Shown: positions 1,603 through 5,688 of the stretch, piece by piece
How positions within the stretch are numbered: the stretch's first letter is position 1
Layout: each line of letters begins with the position of its first letter
Source: a virus
Lineage: Duplodnaviria; Heunggongvirae; Uroviricota; Caudoviricetes
Strand: one strand, 5' to 3'
IMG/VR virus record: IMGVR_UViG_2681813269_000003
Location: 1-5,688 of that record
Length of the DNA stretch: 5,688 bases
Program-made: the position numbers and the translations under genes
Notes under the pieces: generated by a model
Told to the model about the DNA's origin: nothing
The model's database searches: none
Seen by the model: the letters and a program-made list of their open reading frames with translations, nothing else

Positions 1603-1890
1603 TCAATCCTGCTCAAGATTGTAGATGAGTTTATTCTTCAGCAAAAGCAGAAAACCAGCCTTAAAACCAATCTCTTTCAAAACCCGTAATGATGTGACAA
1701 ATTCGTCCTCACGCAAAATAAAACCGTCCGTCAGAAGTCCATTACAAAAATAAAATAACACAGCACCGCTCTTCCTTTGTTGAGATTGCAAACATCTAAT
1801 GCGGCAATGGCTGACAATCGCTCCATTCTCAACGCGCACAGCATAGAGGCCATTTTCACTAAAAATTTCACGCAATTCTTCGATTTTCAT
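1603..1890 (-). CDS. Hypothetical protein, 95 aa (AT-rich moron; positional equivalent of rem in the Qin prophage)
   Basis: ATG at 1888-1890 with SD GGAAGG 8-9 nt upstream; single clean ORF. Visibly AT-rich relative to flanking genes. Sits between hok and the nin-like genes, where K-12 Qin carries rem, but I cannot verify sequence homology. Confidence 0.5.
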   Translation of the reverse strand: MKIEELREIFSENGLYAVRVENGAIVSHCRIRCLQSQQRKSGAVLFYFCNGLLTDGFILREDEFVTSLRVLKEIGFKAGFLLLLKNKLIYNLEQD

Positions 1891-2139: not shown

Positions 2140-2295
2140 TTACTTCCTGGATTCGTAGTCTACGAAGACAGCGACCTCCGTCTGGCCGGTTCGGATTCGT
2201 ACCTCACAGAGGTCTTTCCTCGTTACCAGTGCCGTCACTATGACGGTTAAACAGATGACGATCAGGGCGATTAACATCGCCTTTTGCTGCTTCAT
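2140..2295 (-). CDS. hokD: Hok-family type I toxin (HokD/RelF-like small membrane protein)
   Basis: 51-aa ORF MKQQKAMLIALIVICLTVIVTALVTRKDLCEVRIRTGQTEVAVFVDYESRK, matching my recollection of E. coli HokD/RelF except for the last few residues. ATG at 2293-2295 with SD AAGGAG 9 nt upstream. Confidence 0.85.
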   Translation of the reverse strand: MKQQKAMLIALIVICLTVIVTALVTRKDLCEVRIRTGQTEVAVFVDYESRK

Positions 2296-2352
2296 AGCCT
2301 GCTTCTCCTTGCCTTTCGGCATGTAAGAGGCTAACCTACATGTGCAAAGCAT
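2140..2352 (-). CDS. mok: Mok-like leader ORF (in-frame N-terminal extension of hok, modulator of killing)
   Basis: In-frame ATG at 2350-2352 with its own SD GAGG about 8 nt upstream gives a 70-aa product MLCTCRLASYMPKGKEKQAM + Hok. This resembles my recollection of K-12 MokC (ML.TCR...KEK.AMKQ..., 69 aa, in frame with HokC). Confidence 0.55.
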   Translation of the reverse strand: MLCTCRLASYMPKGKEKQAMKQQKAMLIALIVICLTVIVTALVTRKDLCEVRIRTGQTEVAVFVDYESRK

Positions 2353-2471
2353 GAAATTGGCCTCAGATTAATGTTAAGCGTCTTGCCGGACGCGTAATGT
2401 TAACTGGGGCTTTTCTCTATCTGCCTTTTGGTGTTCATGCCTGAAGCAGATAGCCTCAAGCACCCGCAGTC

Positions 2472-2522: not shown

Positions 2523-3209
2523 TCACTCCTTCTCTTCTTTACCGTAGTGGAGTTGACCAATTTTGATAAGAGGGCGTCCCTGAGATTTGCGGTGTAGATT
2601 GGTATCGCGCAGAGAATACACACAGCCACAATATTCCTGCTGATAGAATTTTTCGCGCTTGCTGATTTCAATCATACGGGACGAGCCGCCCTGCTTGCGC
2701 CAGTTATAATCCCAGTACACCATGCCCGGATAATGCGCGACGGCTCGCCGCCCACAGTCGTTAACCTGCTGCATATTTTTCCAGCGTGAAATGCCCAGTG
2801 AACTGCTGATCACACTGAAACCATTTTCAGCGGCGTACAGCGCTGTCCGCTCAAAACGCATGTCAAAACACATGGTGCAACGGATCCCTCGTTCGGGCTC
2901 CCATTCCATTCCTTTGGCTCGTTCAAACCAGTTGTCTGTGTCGTAATCAGCATCAATAAACGGCACGCCGTGTTGTTCAGCAAAGCGAATATTCTCATCC
3001 TTACGAATTAAATACTCTTTCTGAGGATGAATGTTCGGGTTGTAGAAAAAGATGGTGTAGTCGATTCCCGAGGCCTGAAGCGCCTCCATCACCTCACCGG
3101 AACATGGAGCACAGCAAGAGTGCAGTAGTAGTTTGTTTGCCCCGTTTGGGAGCTCCAATTTGGGCCGTTTGAAATCAGCAACTGTCATAAATATGTTTAT
3201 TGGGGTCAT
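2523..3209 (-). CDS. queH: QueH-like epoxyqueuosine reductase (DUF208 family)
   Basis: 228-aa ORF with the Cys-rich motifs I associate with QueH: [12 protein letters not shown] near the N-terminus, [11 protein letters not shown] centrally, and [12 protein letters not shown] near the C-terminus. Start codon is uncertain: ATG at 3207-3209 or the ATG at 3186-3188, neither with a good SD. Confidence 0.7.
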
Positions 3210-3356
3210 AAAAATATCAAAGAGTGTAGCATTAGAACGGGGCTATCGGAAACAGATGTGTGACTGCTCCCCGCCCTTTCGGGTGGTCTCCTGATGATTT
3301 GAGGGTGCAGAAATCCCTCCGGTTAAGGATTAAATTTTTAACAGTGCTAAATTTAA

Positions 3357-3770
3357 TTATTCAGTTCTGGATTTTGTCGCCCTGCGTATCCGCGCTTTCG
3401 CGTTACGCTCAATCTGTATCAGCTTTTCTATATTTCTCCGCCTTTCCTGTTCCTCCTGGCGCAATAGCCTTACATCATCTGCCAGTCTGGTTTCTCTTTT
3501 TGCCACAGAGAGCATCCAGTCAAACGGCTCCACAACCGCACCGCAGATTTTACAGCGGACCTGACGCTCTTTTTCGTCAACCCGTACAGAGGCGTGATGG
3601 CAATATGGTCTTTCCGATGGCTCATAAAGAAAATTAACCTGATTACGAGGGTCATCCTCTTTTACCGGAAATAAAACGATATTGCTTAACTCATCTTGGT
3701 GATGCTGCCAACTTACTGATTTAGTGTATGAGAATGCCAGCGGTAATTGAAGCCTGATAGCTAATTTCAT
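3357..3770 (-). CDS. Hypothetical phage protein with putative zinc ribbon (C-H-H ... C-x-x-C) and basic coiled-coil C-terminus
   Basis: 137-aa ORF with ATG at 3768-3770 immediately after the upstream stop (TGAATG) and a strong SD AGGAGG about 11 nt upstream. Contains YCHH...(15 aa)...CKICG, followed by a Glu/Arg-rich tail (LLRQEEQERRRNIEKLIQIERNAKARIRR). Confidence 0.55.
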   Translation of the reverse strand: MKLAIRLQLPLAFSYTKSVSWQHHQDELSNIVLFPVKEDDPRNQVNFLYEPSERPYCHHASVRVDEKERQVRCKICGAVVEPFDWMLSVAKRETRLADDVRLLRQEEQERRRNIEKLIQIERNAKARIRRATKSRTE

Positions 3771-4193
3771 TCACAGTATCGCCTCCTGAAAATTACCCTG
3801 ATAGAAAGCCAGTACACGCTGCATAGCTTCGCTCTTCCGGCACTCGCGACAGATTATATTCAGGCGCCTGTCGTAGCGGCGTATTTCTCCGTCAGGTAAT
3901 GACCAGATAAGGTCCGGATCAACAACAACCGGTTTCCTCACCTTTACTCTCGAGAGTTTTTTGCGGGCGCTTTGCCAGTCCTTGCGAGCCTGTTCAGACG
4001 GGAATAAGCCGTAGCCAGAATTATATACATCACCACTTGCGACCAGTTCTATGCATAAGCGACCGACAGACGCACGACTGATACCTGTTTCATCTGACAA
4101 CTGCCGAATCGTGACCCGACCGTCCTGATGCACGAGTTCCACAATTCGCGTCTTCAGTTCTTCCCGCTGTTCGGGAGTAAAAGGTTTCGCCAT
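3771..4193 (-). CDS. Hypothetical winged-helix (HTH) DNA-binding phage protein
   Basis: 140-aa ORF with ATG at 4191-4193 and SD GGAGGA (revcomp of 4197-4202). N-terminal segment IVELVHQDGRVTIRQLSDETGISRASVGRLCIELVASGDV has the pattern of a DeoR/MarR-like winged helix. Translationally coupled to the downstream zinc-ribbon ORF. Confidence 0.65.
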   Translation of the reverse strand: MAKPFTPEQREELKTRIVELVHQDGRVTIRQLSDETGISRASVGRLCIELVASGDVYNSGYGLFPSEQARKDWQSARKKLSRVKVRKPVVVDPDLIWSLPDGEIRRYDRRLNIICRECRKSEAMQRVLAFYQGNFQEAIL

Positions 4194-4207
4194 AAATCCT
4201 CCTGAAA

Positions 4208-4954
4208 CTACTTAACAACCCTCGAATGGCTAACATTCGGACGCCAGCTCTCCCAGTTAAAATTCACCCAGCGCCCGCCGTTCATGACCATGCGATCCAT
4301 CACCCGCTCGCCGAGCAATGTTTTCATCACCTCATAGTTCAGGTTTGTCAGCATCCCCACGCTGCGCATCGACGCTGTCCGGCGATCAACAATCTGGTGC
4401 AGCACCACCTGCTCGTTTTTCGTCTCGCGCTGAATGCCAATTTCATCAAGAACCAGCAGATCCACTTCGCACAGCTCCCGCAAAAATTTTTCGCCTGACT
4501 GCCCGTCGTCATAGCTGGCGTGCAGGGCGCTCATAACATCAGCCACGGTAACCACAATCACTGTCTGACCGTCTTTCAGCAGGCGATTCCCGATAGCTGC
4601 CGCTAAGTGATTCTTCCCGGTACCAGGTTTTCCGCTGAACGCAAAATTTGTACACCCGGTCATCAGTTCATCGGCGATGGATTTCGCCTGGCTTAACGCG
4701 TATCGCTGGCCGTCGTTCTGCACCTGGTAATTCGCAAACGAGCATTTACGGTGCAACGGCTGGATGCCTGAGCGATTCAGAATTTTTTCCACCCGCAACT
4801 GGCGATTCAGGCGGTTGATCTCCTCGCTACGTTTCTGGCCTTCAGCAAGTTGCCACTCGCGCCACTCCGCTACCGTTCTGAATGGGGCGGTTACATGTGG
4901 CGGGGTCAGTCGGCGGATGCGTTCCAGAACGCCGCCTGTCGCAATATTTTTCAT
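4208..4954 (-). CDS. DnaC-family replicative helicase loader (phage replication protein, AAA+ ATPase)
   Basis: 248-aa ORF collinear with E. coli DnaC as I recall it (for example NRSGI.PLH..CSF.NY and MLTN.N.E.M..LLGERVMDRM). Walker A FSGKPGTGKNHLAAAI and Walker B DLLVLDEIG are present. ATG at 4952-4954 with a G-rich SD. It diverges from host DnaC, so it is a prophage paralogue. Confidence 0.9.
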   Translation of the reverse strand: MKNIATGGVLERIRRLTPPHVTAPFRTVAEWREWQLAEGQKRSEEINRLNRQLRVEKILNRSGIQPLHRKCSFANYQVQNDGQRYALSQAKSIADELMTGCTNFAFSGKPGTGKNHLAAAIGNRLLKDGQTVIVVTVADVMSALHASYDDGQSGEKFLRELCEVDLLVLDEIGIQRETKNEQVVLHQIVDRRTASMRSVGMLTNLNYEVMKTLLGERVMDRMVMNGGRWVNFNWESWRPNVSHSRVVK

Positions 4955-4960
4955 GGTCCG

Positions 4961-5296
4961 TTACCCCCTGAAGCCTGGCGGGATCGCACTGTCCGGCAAC
5001 GAGACGGTGTTAACCTGTCGGAGCAACGTCTCAGGCCGAACACCTTTCGGCGCGAACAGGCCCTGGTATTCATTGGCGATGCTGTGTCGAATCACCTGCT
5101 CAGGTGTAAAACCCTGCTGACGGAATTTTTCCAGTTCCCGTATCGCCCCGTTAGCGCCCTGCTCCGTTCGAATCGGTTTTCGCAATGCCTGTCTGAACCG
5201 GACCCACTCATGCCAGAGTGTTTCCGGCAACCAATCGGGCAGCTCAATAGCCTCCGGCTCGAATTTTTTAGACGCTCGTTTTTGGCGAGGGGGAGA
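4961..5296 (-). CDS. DnaT-like primosomal protein C-terminal domain (3' segment of a frame-disrupted replication initiator gene)
   Basis: Open frame from the stop at 5297-5299 down to the TAA at 4961-4963. It ends ...RQVNTVSLPDSAIPPGFRG, matching the E. coli DnaT C-terminus (...NTVSEPDSQIPPGFRG) as I recall it; KKFEPEAIELPDW parallels DnaT KFAMYPDWQPDADF. There is no ATG or GTG in this frame before the TTG at 5228-5230, so translation probably continues from upstream segments. Lies immediately upstream of the dnaC-like gene, as in the host dnaT-dnaC operon. Confidence 0.6.
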   Translation of the reverse strand, partial: SPPRQKRASKKFEPEAIELPDWLPETLWHEWVRFRQALRKPIRTEQGANGAIRELEKFRQQGFTPEQVIRHSIANEYQGLFAPKGVRPETLLRQVNTVSLPDSAIPPGFRG

Positions 5297-5308
5297 TCAG
5301 TATTTAGA

Positions 5309-5347
5309 TCTTCCTCTTCCTCTTCCTCTTCCTCTTCCTCTTCCTCT
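5309..5347. repeat. Hexanucleotide tandem repeat (TCTTCC) x 6.5
   Basis: Directly visible: six full tcttcc units plus tct. On the minus strand one frame encodes 12 consecutive Glu (GAG/GAA alternating). Confidence 0.9.
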
Positions 5348-5417
5348 GGTAACGCTTTTTGATCCGTTTGTGTAACGCTGGCAGCGTTACCTTTTCGTTT
5401 CAGTTCGCGTATTTTTG

Positions 5418-5688
5418 TTACTCGCTCGTTTGTAACCGCCCGTTTTTTTTAGAGCTTTTTCCGTTATGACGTTCAAAGTTAGGTAGAGAAAGCCCTCCGT
5501 CATTTTCGACCAGCCATCCAACCTGAATTAACGCATCAGCAAAACCAGACATAAAAGTGATGCGATCTATTGCACTTTTTGTAACGCCGCGAGCGTTACA
5601 ATCTGCATTACCGTCTATCATTTGTTGATCCGCCCATGCCCAGAAGCGAATAACCTGAGGTAGCCTGAGTTTAACGGACACTCCTTCC
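5418..5688 (-). CDS. Replication initiator N-terminal segment (partial; 5' end probably beyond the window edge)
   Basis: Minus-strand frame open from the window edge to the TAA at 5418-5420 (...GVTKSAIDRITFMSGFADALIQVGWLVENDGGLSLPNFERHNGKSSKKNGRLQTSE). The GTG at 5679-5681 has GGAAGGA immediately adjacent with no spacer, so the true start is probably upstream of the window. It ends just after an A8 homopolymer at 5443-5450. Confidence 0.45.
   Translation of the reverse strand, partial: EGVSVKLRLPQVIRFWAWADQQMIDGNADCNARGVTKSAIDRITFMSGFADALIQVGWLVENDGGLSLPNFERHNGKSSKKNGRLQTSE

Follow-up and report, generated by a model that had tools for sequence, protein, structure and literature searches.

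A Ren-like DUF977 gene and an IS1-altered PHROG 1621 gene side by side in a degenerate lambdoid prophage

The window analysed here is a 5,688-nt stretch of DNA in which two small ORFs, gene A and gene B, lie directly 3' of the replication genes of a prophage (Table 1). The sizes and positions given for them in the initial annotation, 140 and 137 aa, are correct. Both are encoded on the minus strand, a detail that annotation had left out. Gene A starts 15 nt past the end of a ydaV-like helicase-loader gene, the location that defines the "ren slot", and gene B follows at the start of the nin region, between the DUF977 gene and QueH. At the A/B junction the sequence reads CTG TGA ATG AAA, with the TGA at 3773-3771 and the ATG at 3770-3768. 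The profile matches described below (DUF977 at 1e-33 and PHROG 1621 at 9e-54) identify both as real genes rather than chance ORFs. The contig is a decayed prophage riddled with IS sequences: its initiator gene is frameshifted and truncated by an IS, and the contig ends in 32-33 nt of another repeated IS-like end. It most probably represents a decayed lambdoid prophage with a Rac/ydaV-type replication module in a Shigella/E. coli draft contig (CXNR01000194.1). A scan of positions 3100-4300 gave no promoter or terminator signal over the shuffled expectation.

Table 1. Features of the gene A/gene B locus, in window coordinates.
Feature	Position	Strand	Basis
Gene A, 140-aa DUF977 / "Ren-like" ORF	3771..4193	-	ORF list; Pfam and PHROG matches
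Gene B ORF as read in the window, 137 aa	3357..3770	-	ORF list
GGAGGA, Shine-Dalgarno-like	4197..4202	-	3 nt 5' of the gene A ATG; from sequence
AGGAGG in the end codons of gene A (CAG GAG GCG = Q-E-A)	3782..3787	-	From sequence
Spacer-derived 13 codons (MKLAIRLQLPLAF), 5' end of the chimeric gene B ORF	3732..3770	-	Alignment with intact relatives
IS1 outermost 34 nt, left inverted repeat GGTGATGCTGCCAACTTACTGATTTAGTGTATGA	3698..3731	+	34/34 match to IS1
Gene B conserved core, ..DELSNIVLFP to stop	3357..3697	-	PHROG 1621 match
Gene B zinc-ribbon ligands C57, H59, C73, C76	about 3543-3602	-	Cross-genus alignments
Gene B long helix, end = IEKLIQIERNAKARIRR	about 3363-3527	-	AF2 model
YdaV/DnaC-like helicase-loader gene	4208..4954	-	NCBIfam PRK12377 8e-154; PHROG 50

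Gene A is a full-length DUF977 protein in which a linker joins a MarR-type winged helix to a C-terminal motif. It matches Pfam DUF977 (PF06163) at 1.1e-33 with 116.5 bits (cut-off 22.1), its residues 1-136 covering positions 1-134 of the 134-position profile, and it matches PHROG 142, "Ren-like exclusion protein", at 2.7e-44, a match that spans 1-115 of the 116 profile positions. The winged helix-turn-helix (wHTH) that the initial annotation had seen at the N-terminus is supported by three approaches. Pfam reports HTH_24 (7e-6), HTH_IclR (6e-5) and also MarR_2; the AF2 model has a pLDDT of about 90 over residues 7-65 and of 86-93 over residues 11-70; and Foldseek pairs this model with MntR, IclR, GntR and MarR regulators at probability 1.0 and E about 2e-3. 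A comparison with PDB sequences gave weak wHTH matches, the best at E = 0.09. The conserved motif at the C-terminus is NIICRECRKSEAMQRVLAFY.

Within DUF977, gene A is an ordinary member with no structural difference from the family. It has a 99%-identical cluster from Shigella sonnei/E. coli (P0118), and PGAP labels a 99%-identical gene "DUF977 family protein". At 90% identity the family forms more than 848 clusters, most of them from E. coli and Shigella, and 4,437 of 5,426 E. coli genomes carry it. Phage records label the same gene "LygF", a name that originates from the Sdr I region of Salmonella Enteritidis (PMC4490851). Followed up as a lead on function, the label yields a gene name in Salmonella Sdr I with no function attached.

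Gene A and lambda Ren share profile, architecture and position. Both match PHROG 142 full-length (Ren at 1.6e-41 over profile positions 11-110 of 116), and both place a MarR-like wHTH at the N-terminus. At the C-terminus they have in common the motif N-h-h-x-x-E-C-R-x-S-x-A-M-x-R-V-L-A-x-Y, in which 12 of 20 residues are identical. Direct pairwise similarity is confined to these C-terminal 20-23 residues, whether by BLASTP (E = 3e-7) or by hhalign with a shallow profile (probability 88.6%); outside the motif neither program detected any. The gene order in lambda is P-ren-ninB, and gene A likewise directly follows a helicase-loader gene in the pR operon, although the loader is DnaC-like (YdaV) here and P in lambda. 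The proteins also differ in length, 96 aa for Ren and 140 aa for gene A, the latter having about 45 additional residues that separate its wHTH from its C-terminal motif, and lambda Ren itself, unlike gene A, falls short of the Pfam DUF977 model. As judged from these comparisons, gene A is homologous to Ren at the family level.

The function that defines Ren is to let the phage escape Rex-dependent exclusion. Lambda Ren is non-essential (PMC10695390), and a preprint reports an interaction with Rex proteins and a presumed link to replication (bioRxiv 10.1101/2021.04.19.439022). Gene A is encoded exactly in the lambda ren position and carries the ECRxSxAMxRVLAxY motif that lambda Ren also has. 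By analogy with Ren it may be a dispensable factor, binding either DNA or protein, with a part in modulating replication or in countering exclusion of the Rex type. The window contains no Rex system. DUF977 is found in most E. coli genomes, and its connection with lambda Ren, made through profile, motif and synteny, suggests concrete assays for the family.

A second protein of the same slot is YdaW from the Rac prophage of E. coli K-12, which also follows ydaV and, like gene A, has an N-terminal wHTH. YdaW belongs to a different family: it matches PHROG 630 at 2e-71 and PHROG 142 at only 2e-4, and its BLASTP comparison with gene A gives E = 0.054. A preprint reports that YdaW, when overexpressed, is a "blocker" of the toxicity of RcaT from retron-Sen2 (bioRxiv 10.1101/2020.06.22.160242). 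Because YdaW is a PHROG 630 protein and not a DUF977 protein, that result is not transferable to gene A, and we rejected the lead.

Gene B is, by profile and alignment, a member of a widespread, catalogued and uncharacterised phage family. It matches PHROG 1621 at 9.4e-54 from residue 24 of the 137-aa ORF onwards; PHROGs 8538 and 4865 are relatives of this profile, and the family extends to 1,469 representative clusters (50% identity) at E <= 1e-3. The statement in the initial annotation that neither protein could be placed in a named family is thus superseded, with gene A in DUF977/PHROG 142 and gene B in PHROG 1621. Homologues from Klebsiella, Kluyvera, Erwinia, Yersinia, Serratia and other genera have in common with gene B a CxH...CxxC ribbon, a DPFD motif and an ERNAKARIRR helix. 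The initial annotation had described the ribbon as C-H-H...C-x-x-C; C57, H59, C73 and C76 (137-aa numbering) are indeed invariant or near-invariant across genera, but the second histidine, H58, is not conserved. In native numbering, the cross-genus alignment has C38, H40, C54 and C57 invariant together with E102, N104, A105, K106, R108 and R110, and the ribbon ligands and the ERNAKARIRR helix are kept in distant family members. The AF2 model, again in native numbering, has the ribbon at 38-62 and a single long helix at 63-117, which agrees with the charged helical tail noted earlier, and the N-terminus is predicted to be disordered.

Profile and structure searches connect gene B to no characterised protein family. 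A Pfam scan of 48 diverse relatives assigned no family, the gene B profile found zero matches among PDB sequences, and the best Foldseek hits to the model had E values of 0.09 (PDB, 1pft) and 0.2 (BFVD), with none below 1e-3. The best resemblance in both sequence and structure is that of the roughly 25-residue ribbon to the TFIIB zinc ribbon (PF08271), matched by gene B at E = 2.2e-4 with 21.2 bits, under the gathering cut-off of 29, and by 3 of the 48 relatives at E <= 1e-3. Gene B differs from TFIIB in having a histidine as one ligand and in lacking the cyclin-like domains. This resemblance is generic to zinc ribbons and is uninformative on RNA polymerase binding. The basic ERNAKARIRR segment also loosely resembles bZIP or N-protein sequences, a reading for which we make no claim.

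The genomic position of the family is nearly constant outside Escherichia. In 13 loci from non-Escherichia species, gene B is the closing gene of the nin region: NinG, RusA, YbcO or NinH precedes it and Q follows. Of ten ORFs scanned on the 5' side of gene B, six were NinG and one each YbcO, RusA and NinH, the remaining one having no Pfam match; of ten scanned on its 3' side, nine were Q. The usual place of gene B is the last nin slot, between a junction-resolvase gene (NinG, RusA or YbcO) or NinH and the antiterminator gene Q, typically with an ATGA overlap with the gene 5' of it. The window copy departs from the PHROG 1621 norm both in lying at the start of the nin region and not the end, and in having lost its own Shine-Dalgarno (SD) sequence and ATG to IS1. 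The native protein has a disordered N-terminus carrying ELSNVVxFP, a CxH...CxxC ribbon and a helix of about 55 residues, at the end of which stands the near-invariant ERNAKARIRR. Such a protein could be a zinc-stabilised, probably dimeric coiled-coil protein whose target, late in early transcription, may be nucleic acid or a conserved partner. Widespread and without a Pfam model, the family holds so constant a pre-Q slot outside Escherichia that it is a reasonable target for a functional study of late-gene timing. We give little credence to the specific proposal that this conserved family acts as an early-to-late switch factor of temperate phages at the Q, RNA polymerase or resolvase step and that its repeated adjacency to Ren-like genes in Escherichia marks a true partnership and not mosaic chance.

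The initial annotation described genes A and B as fused stop-to-start through TGAATG. The junction sequence is present as described, but it is not where gene B natively begins. In intact relatives (FDAARGOS_944, phage 640R1; 72 loci), gene B has its own invariant AAGGAGAGGAGC-ATG, 57 nt past the gene A stop. Homologues in other genera use the equivalent start, with an N-terminus of the form M-x-TETE-x-ELSN, and in an intact relative PGAP chooses the internal ATG, giving a gene B of 118 aa. By these alignments, the stop-start ATG at 3770 is not the native start of gene B.

One could instead suppose that the long, 137-aa gene B is genuine in Escherichia, reached by termination-reinitiation, and that the window ORF is expressed and functional despite its IS1 patch. 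The 57-nt spacer between the genes is open and in frame at every locus, and the triplet after the gene A stop is a potential start in 71 of the 72 related loci (ATG in 32, GTG in 39). Some gene callers give forms of 136-143 aa (P0001, P0003), and 137 aa is annotated in phage 640R1. Both SD-like motifs reported earlier, GGAGGA and AGGAGG, are present, and the latter sits 11 nt before the junction ATG; this spacing is long, and the motif falls within the coding sequence of gene A. Against these points, the triplet is GTA, which is no start codon, in one locus, and a 19-codon frame would by our own estimate remain open by chance in ~40% of cases. The N-terminal extension is absent in all other genera, the PHROG 1621 match leaves out the first 23 residues of the ORF, the N-terminus of gene B is predicted to be disordered, and PGAP favours the internal start. 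We consider a genuine long form unlikely.

The window lacks the native start because of an IS1 fragment. Positions 3698-3731 are identical in 34 of 34 nt to the annotated left end of IS1A, with 0 such matches expected by chance, and a 55-nt query spanning the fragment has 67,418 hits in E. coli genomes. These 34 nt of IS1 stand in place of as many native bases, which in intact relatives carry the SD and ATG of gene B, and the 137-aa ORF is therefore a chimera; the apparent stop-to-start fusion of the two genes arises because this fragment replaced the start of gene B. In the chimeric ORF, 13 codons of spacer and about 11 derived from IS1 precede the gene B core, so that residues 1-25 are spacer and IS1 inverted-repeat sequence. 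If expressed at all, the protein would be N-terminally altered and possibly crippled.

IS1 is represented in the window by these 34 nt alone, with no full 768-bp element, transposase genes or target-site duplication. Related loci show larger arrangements at the same place: a complete IS1 lies at the same junction, with a AAGATGAGTT duplication, in two loci (L010 and L012), and a third (L011) has the order geneA-geneB(1-129)-IS1-geneB(26-137). Partial proteins of Shigella sonnei (P0043, P0050) are read in a frame that runs from the IS1 interior into gene B. These observations bear on the question whether the fragment is a genuine scar or an assembly mis-join, in which case the true genome would carry either the 768-bp IS1 in gene B codons 8-10 or a duplication like that of L011. 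A mis-join would account for the exchange of 34 nt for exactly 34 nt, with no change in length, and for a piece that is precisely the outermost end of the element. Three other contigs have the IS1/AAGATGAG junction together with a full IS1, the junction recurs in the S. sonnei partial proteins, and at its own end the contig carries another repeated IS-like terminus, about 33 nt long. Contig ends of this repeated kind are typical of de Bruijn graph assemblies. Set against a mis-join, an identical contig was obtained from two samples, and we could reconstruct no assembler path that produces the GGCATTC/TCATACAC junction without reads containing that junction. An illegitimate 778-bp deletion with a 2-nt microhomology offers an alternative source for the fragment. 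We rate an assembly mis-join at slightly below even odds. The 34-nt piece, viewed as a k-1 overhang, compares with 32-33 nt for the IS-like contig end, a correspondence that is suggestive and not exact.

The locus also illustrates a pitfall for the annotation of IS-rich draft assemblies, in which a few dozen IS bases can make a plausible "coupled" ORF. The window itself carries little weight, holding an ordinary DUF977/Ren-like gene and an IS1-damaged, catalogued phage gene in a decaying prophage.

The initial annotation had combined the two ORFs into a candidate translationally coupled two-component accessory module, possibly regulatory, exclusion or anti-defence in role; in such a module the two products would act together. 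It had named homology to Ren and lack of co-occurrence beforehand as evidence that would speak against this. The stop-start junction (TGAATG here, TGAGTG elsewhere) would fit such a module. Adjacency is also frequent: the A-B junction is found in 967 of the 1,679 complete E. coli genomes with gene B and in 72 of 85 IMG/VR loci, a sample biased to that context, and near-identical gene B copies stand beside DUF977 alleles of 54-100% identity. But gene A proved to be a family-level homologue of Ren (PHROG 142 at 2.7e-44) in the ren slot, and co-occurrence breaks down outside Escherichia, where 0 of the 13 gene B loci have a DUF977 or Ren gene at a distance of up to 3 kb. Gene B without DUF977 is likewise carried by ArgO145 and Stx2a phages, a Klebsiella phage and Serratia phage Parlo. 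Complete E. coli genomes hold DUF977 at ~8,671 places and gene B at 2,141, an about fourfold difference, and no fewer than 75% of the DUF977 genes in E. coli are unaccompanied by gene B. In two loci (L048 and L050), two to five ORFs separate the genes. The native start of gene B lies 57 nt downstream of gene A with its own SD, and the overlap of gene B with whichever gene precedes it (NinG, YbcO, RusA or NinH) is generic operon packing. PADLOC assigned neither gene to a defence-system family: gene B had no match, and gene A had weak wHTH matches alone, the best at E = 0.0017. The module proposal thus fails on Ren homology, on co-occurrence and on the start site, and we regard it as very improbable.

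What stands from the earlier description is that both genes are small and accessory, and that they belong to a lambdoid prophage. Genes A and B are independent, already catalogued lambdoid accessory genes, because gene B occurs without DUF977 elsewhere, the E. coli counts are unequal and other ORFs can intervene. Our preferred reading, to which we assign a probability of roughly 0.8, is that the locus holds two unrelated, non-essential, delayed-early accessory genes, gene A being Ren-like and gene B a PHROG 1621 member with an IS1-replaced start. In Escherichia and Shigella, mosaic recombination has probably put gene B after DUF977 or Ea22-like genes. The A-B linkage persists, however, with DUF977 alleles that range from 54-100% identity, and selection for linkage, instead of a shared recombination junction, could be the cause. 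The final ~25 nt of gene A accompany gene B even where no gene A is adjacent.

The window is the entire contig CXNR01000194.1 (5,688 bp) of GCA_001256515.1, is 98.9% identical to the prophage adjoining ybhA-modC in E. coli FDAARGOS_944, and carries every one of its genes on the minus strand. The Pfam scan run in this analysis gave no match for the 95-aa ORF. QueH is a tRNA-modification gene and is unusual for a nin region; hokD and sok form a type I toxin-antitoxin cassette within the nin region.

Features of the window, with database matches and place in transcription order.
Feature	Positions	Strand	Match	Place
YdaU/O-like initiator remnant	4961-5681	-		first
DnaC-like loader ydaV	4208-4954	-	NCBIfam PRK12377, 8e-154	second
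Gene A	3771-4193	-		third, after ydaV
Gene B	3357-3770	-		fourth, after gene A
IS1 end	3698-3731	+		inside gene B ORF
QueH	2523-3209	-	epoxyqueuosine reductase homologue, Pfam 1.9e-65; PHROG 3217 (unknown function)	directly downstream of gene B
hokD-type Hok/Gef toxin ORF and sok RNA	2140-2465	-	Pfam 9.8e-23 (toxin ORF)	
sok antitoxin RNA	2290-2465		Rfam RF01794, full length, 117 bits	
95-aa Rem-family ORF	1603-1890	-	PF27490 'Rem' in source contig's precomputed hits; PHROG 340 (unknown function)	
DUF1367 (matches NinB/Orf PHROG), YbcO, DUF1133 Q-like antiterminator		-		last three genes

Gene A (140 aa) and gene B (137 aa) had been described in the initial annotation as a translationally coupled winged helix-turn-helix (wHTH) plus zinc-ribbon pair, assigned to no named family, and as a candidate two-component accessory module. 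The gene anatomy is real, because the TGAATG junction (CTG TGA ATG AAA), the GGAGGA and AGGAGG motifs, the wHTH and the zinc ribbon were each seen, on the minus strand. GGAGGA lies 3 nt before the gene A ATG; AGGAGG lies 11 nt before the downstream ATG and falls within the last codons of gene A.

Gene A is a typical DUF977/Ren-like family protein and occupies the ren slot. The wHTH at its N-terminus was recovered by Pfam (HTH_24, HTH_IclR and MarR_2), by an AF2 model with a pLDDT of about 90 over residues 7-65, and by Foldseek matches to MntR, IclR, GntR and MarR regulators. The protein does have a named family: Pfam DUF977 covers it end to end (116.5 bits; cut-off 22.1), and PHROG 142, 'Ren-like exclusion protein', matches it at 2.7e-44 and lambda Ren, with the same profile, at 1.6e-41. 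A MarR-like wHTH opens both proteins, and gene A, like lambda ren, lies directly 3' of the helicase-loader gene. Direct alignment of the two is confined to a C-terminal motif, NIICRECRKSEAMQRVLAFY against NLVFKECRQSAAMKRVLAVY, with 12 of 20 residues identical (E = 3e-7; hhalign probability 88.6%). Clear homology to Ren had been named beforehand as evidence against an accessory module, and at family level the profile and the motif provide it. DUF977 is abundant: clustering at 90% identity leaves more than 848 clusters, and complete E. coli has about 8,671 places, spread over 4,437 of 5,426 genomes (distant-mode blastn). Ren is non-essential (PMC10695390); an interaction with Rex proteins has been reported, and a link to replication is suspected (bioRxiv 10.1101/2021.04.19.439022). 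Gene A is probably a Ren-type accessory factor that binds DNA or protein. The post-loader slot varies, with a DUF1627 protein there in other E. coli prophages. K-12 YdaW occupies the same slot as gene A but belongs to PHROG 630, and for this reason we rejected transfer to gene A of the retron-blocking activity reported for YdaW.

Gene B belongs to a phage family that is catalogued yet uncharacterised and whose usual place is before Q; the copy in the window has been damaged by IS1. The family is PHROG 1621 (unknown function; 9.4e-54, beginning at residue 24). When 1.84 billion representative proteins were searched with a profile, relatives fell in 1,469 clusters (E <= 1e-3), 216 of them at E <= 1e-10, and the family consensus is M..D...VIxFP...CxH....VDE..R...C..CG...DPFD...L..E...LKR.ERNAKARIR. 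C57, H59, C73 and C76, the zinc-ribbon ligands, show cross-genus conservation, and a single helix of ~55 residues follows them. Pfam scans gave no family for gene B, a sequence search no PDB relative, and structure searches no significant neighbour. It is probably a zinc-stabilised coiled coil that binds nucleic acid or a conserved partner near the early-late boundary. The interest of the window itself is low, and the one part that merits follow-up is the entire gene B family.

The native start of gene B is an internal ATG. All intact IMG/VR loci, as well as FDAARGOS_944 and phage vB_EcoS-640R1, have AAGGAGAGGAGC ATG GAA ATA AAA 57 nt past the gene A stop; PGAP calls a 118-aa protein from this ATG, and in other genera the homologues begin at the corresponding site, whereas the triplet abutting the gene A stop varies: ATG (32 loci), GTG (39) or GTA (1). 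The in-frame start upstream of it is in all likelihood incidental, and translational coupling through TGAATG is not borne out.

In the window, the 34 bases carrying the native Shine-Dalgarno sequence and ATG are swapped base for base for GGTGATGCTGCCAACTTACTGATTTAGTGTATGA, the exact outer (left) end, or inverted repeat, of IS1, which stands there alone. The 137-aa ORF therefore consists of MKLAIRLQLPLAF (spacer), SYTKSVSWQHH(Q) (IS1 inverted repeat) and the gene B core. A 55-nt query over the IS1 piece found 67,418 places in E. coli genomes. Two loci, L010 and L012, carry a complete IS1 with the same junction as the window and a 10-bp target duplication, AAGATGAGTT; in a third, L011, gene B is duplicated around IS1, in the order geneA-geneB(1-129)-IS1-geneB(26-137), and Shigella sonnei has partial proteins whose reading frame runs out of the interior of IS1 and on into gene B. 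The 34-nt remnant may be a mis-join in short-read assembly, given that the replacement is length-neutral and that the contig end itself has ~33 nt of another repeated IS-like end, or it may be a real scar, the identical contig having come from two samples.

Outside Escherichia, species representatives (L095-L108; genera include Kluyvera, Erwinia, Symbiopectobacterium, Pantoea, Yersinia, Phytobacter, Entomohabitans, Enterobacter and Leclercia) carry gene B at the end of the nin region. Among 10 upstream ORFs scanned, six were NinG, one each YbcO, RusA and NinH, and one had no Pfam match; in the 10 loci in which an upstream ORF was seen to abut gene B, the two overlap by ATGA. Downstream, nine of 10 scanned ORFs were antiterminator Q, from two different Pfam families. 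The slot is near-constant: NinG, RusA, YbcO or NinH, then gene B, then Q. A Klebsiella phage has the order NinG-geneB-YlcG-Q, and a distant member lies just before a putative terminase and portal gene in a phage with a Mu-type portal. Gene B in the window is a displaced nin-region gene.

Gene A and gene B are not an obligate pair, contrary to the two-component reading. In none of the 13 loci from outside Escherichia does a relative of DUF977 or Ren lie within 3 kb, and an Ea22-like gene precedes gene B in the ArgO145 phage, Stx2a phages and an O91:H21 genome. In complete E. coli, 1,679 genomes have the gene B core, at 2,141 places in all, against the roughly 8,671 DUF977 places; 967 genomes cover at least 80% of the A-B junction query, so that about 58% of gene B genomes carry the junction. 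Gene B adjoins no more than a quarter of DUF977 genes, and the likelier figure is about one in nine. Two to five ORFs separate the genes in some IMG/VR loci. Where DUF977 is not adjacent (L048, L050, L061), the last ~25 nt of its gene (..AATTTTCAGGAGGCGGTACTGTGA) still stand upstream of gene B, which places one mosaic boundary inside the 3' end of gene A. These sequence arrangements point to recombination with varying boundaries rather than a fixed unit. Rare chimeras fuse gene B to DUF977, Ea22 or DUF1133 sequence (proteins P0005, P0024, P0042).

The prophage is decaying, its genome is rich in IS elements, and its replication module is a pseudogene. Compared with FDAARGOS_944, the initiator gene has, within 5231-5417 (minus strand), a (GAGGAA)n repeat grown by 18 nt and a frameshifting 10-nt deletion, TCCCCCTAAA, between direct TCCCCCT repeats, and its 5' end is truncated at 5656 by IS-like sequence. 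The final ~33 nt of the contig (5656-5688, TGAGGTAGCCTGAGTTTAACGGACACTCCTTCC) depart from the otherwise 99%-identical FDAARGOS_944 prophage and resemble an IS3-family end, possibly IS600. The first 26 nt of TGAGGTAGCCTGAGTTTAACGGACACTCCTTCC are also present in seven other retrieved loci, with two copies in L014; in L011, the sole locus compared, their distance upstream of gene A is similar.
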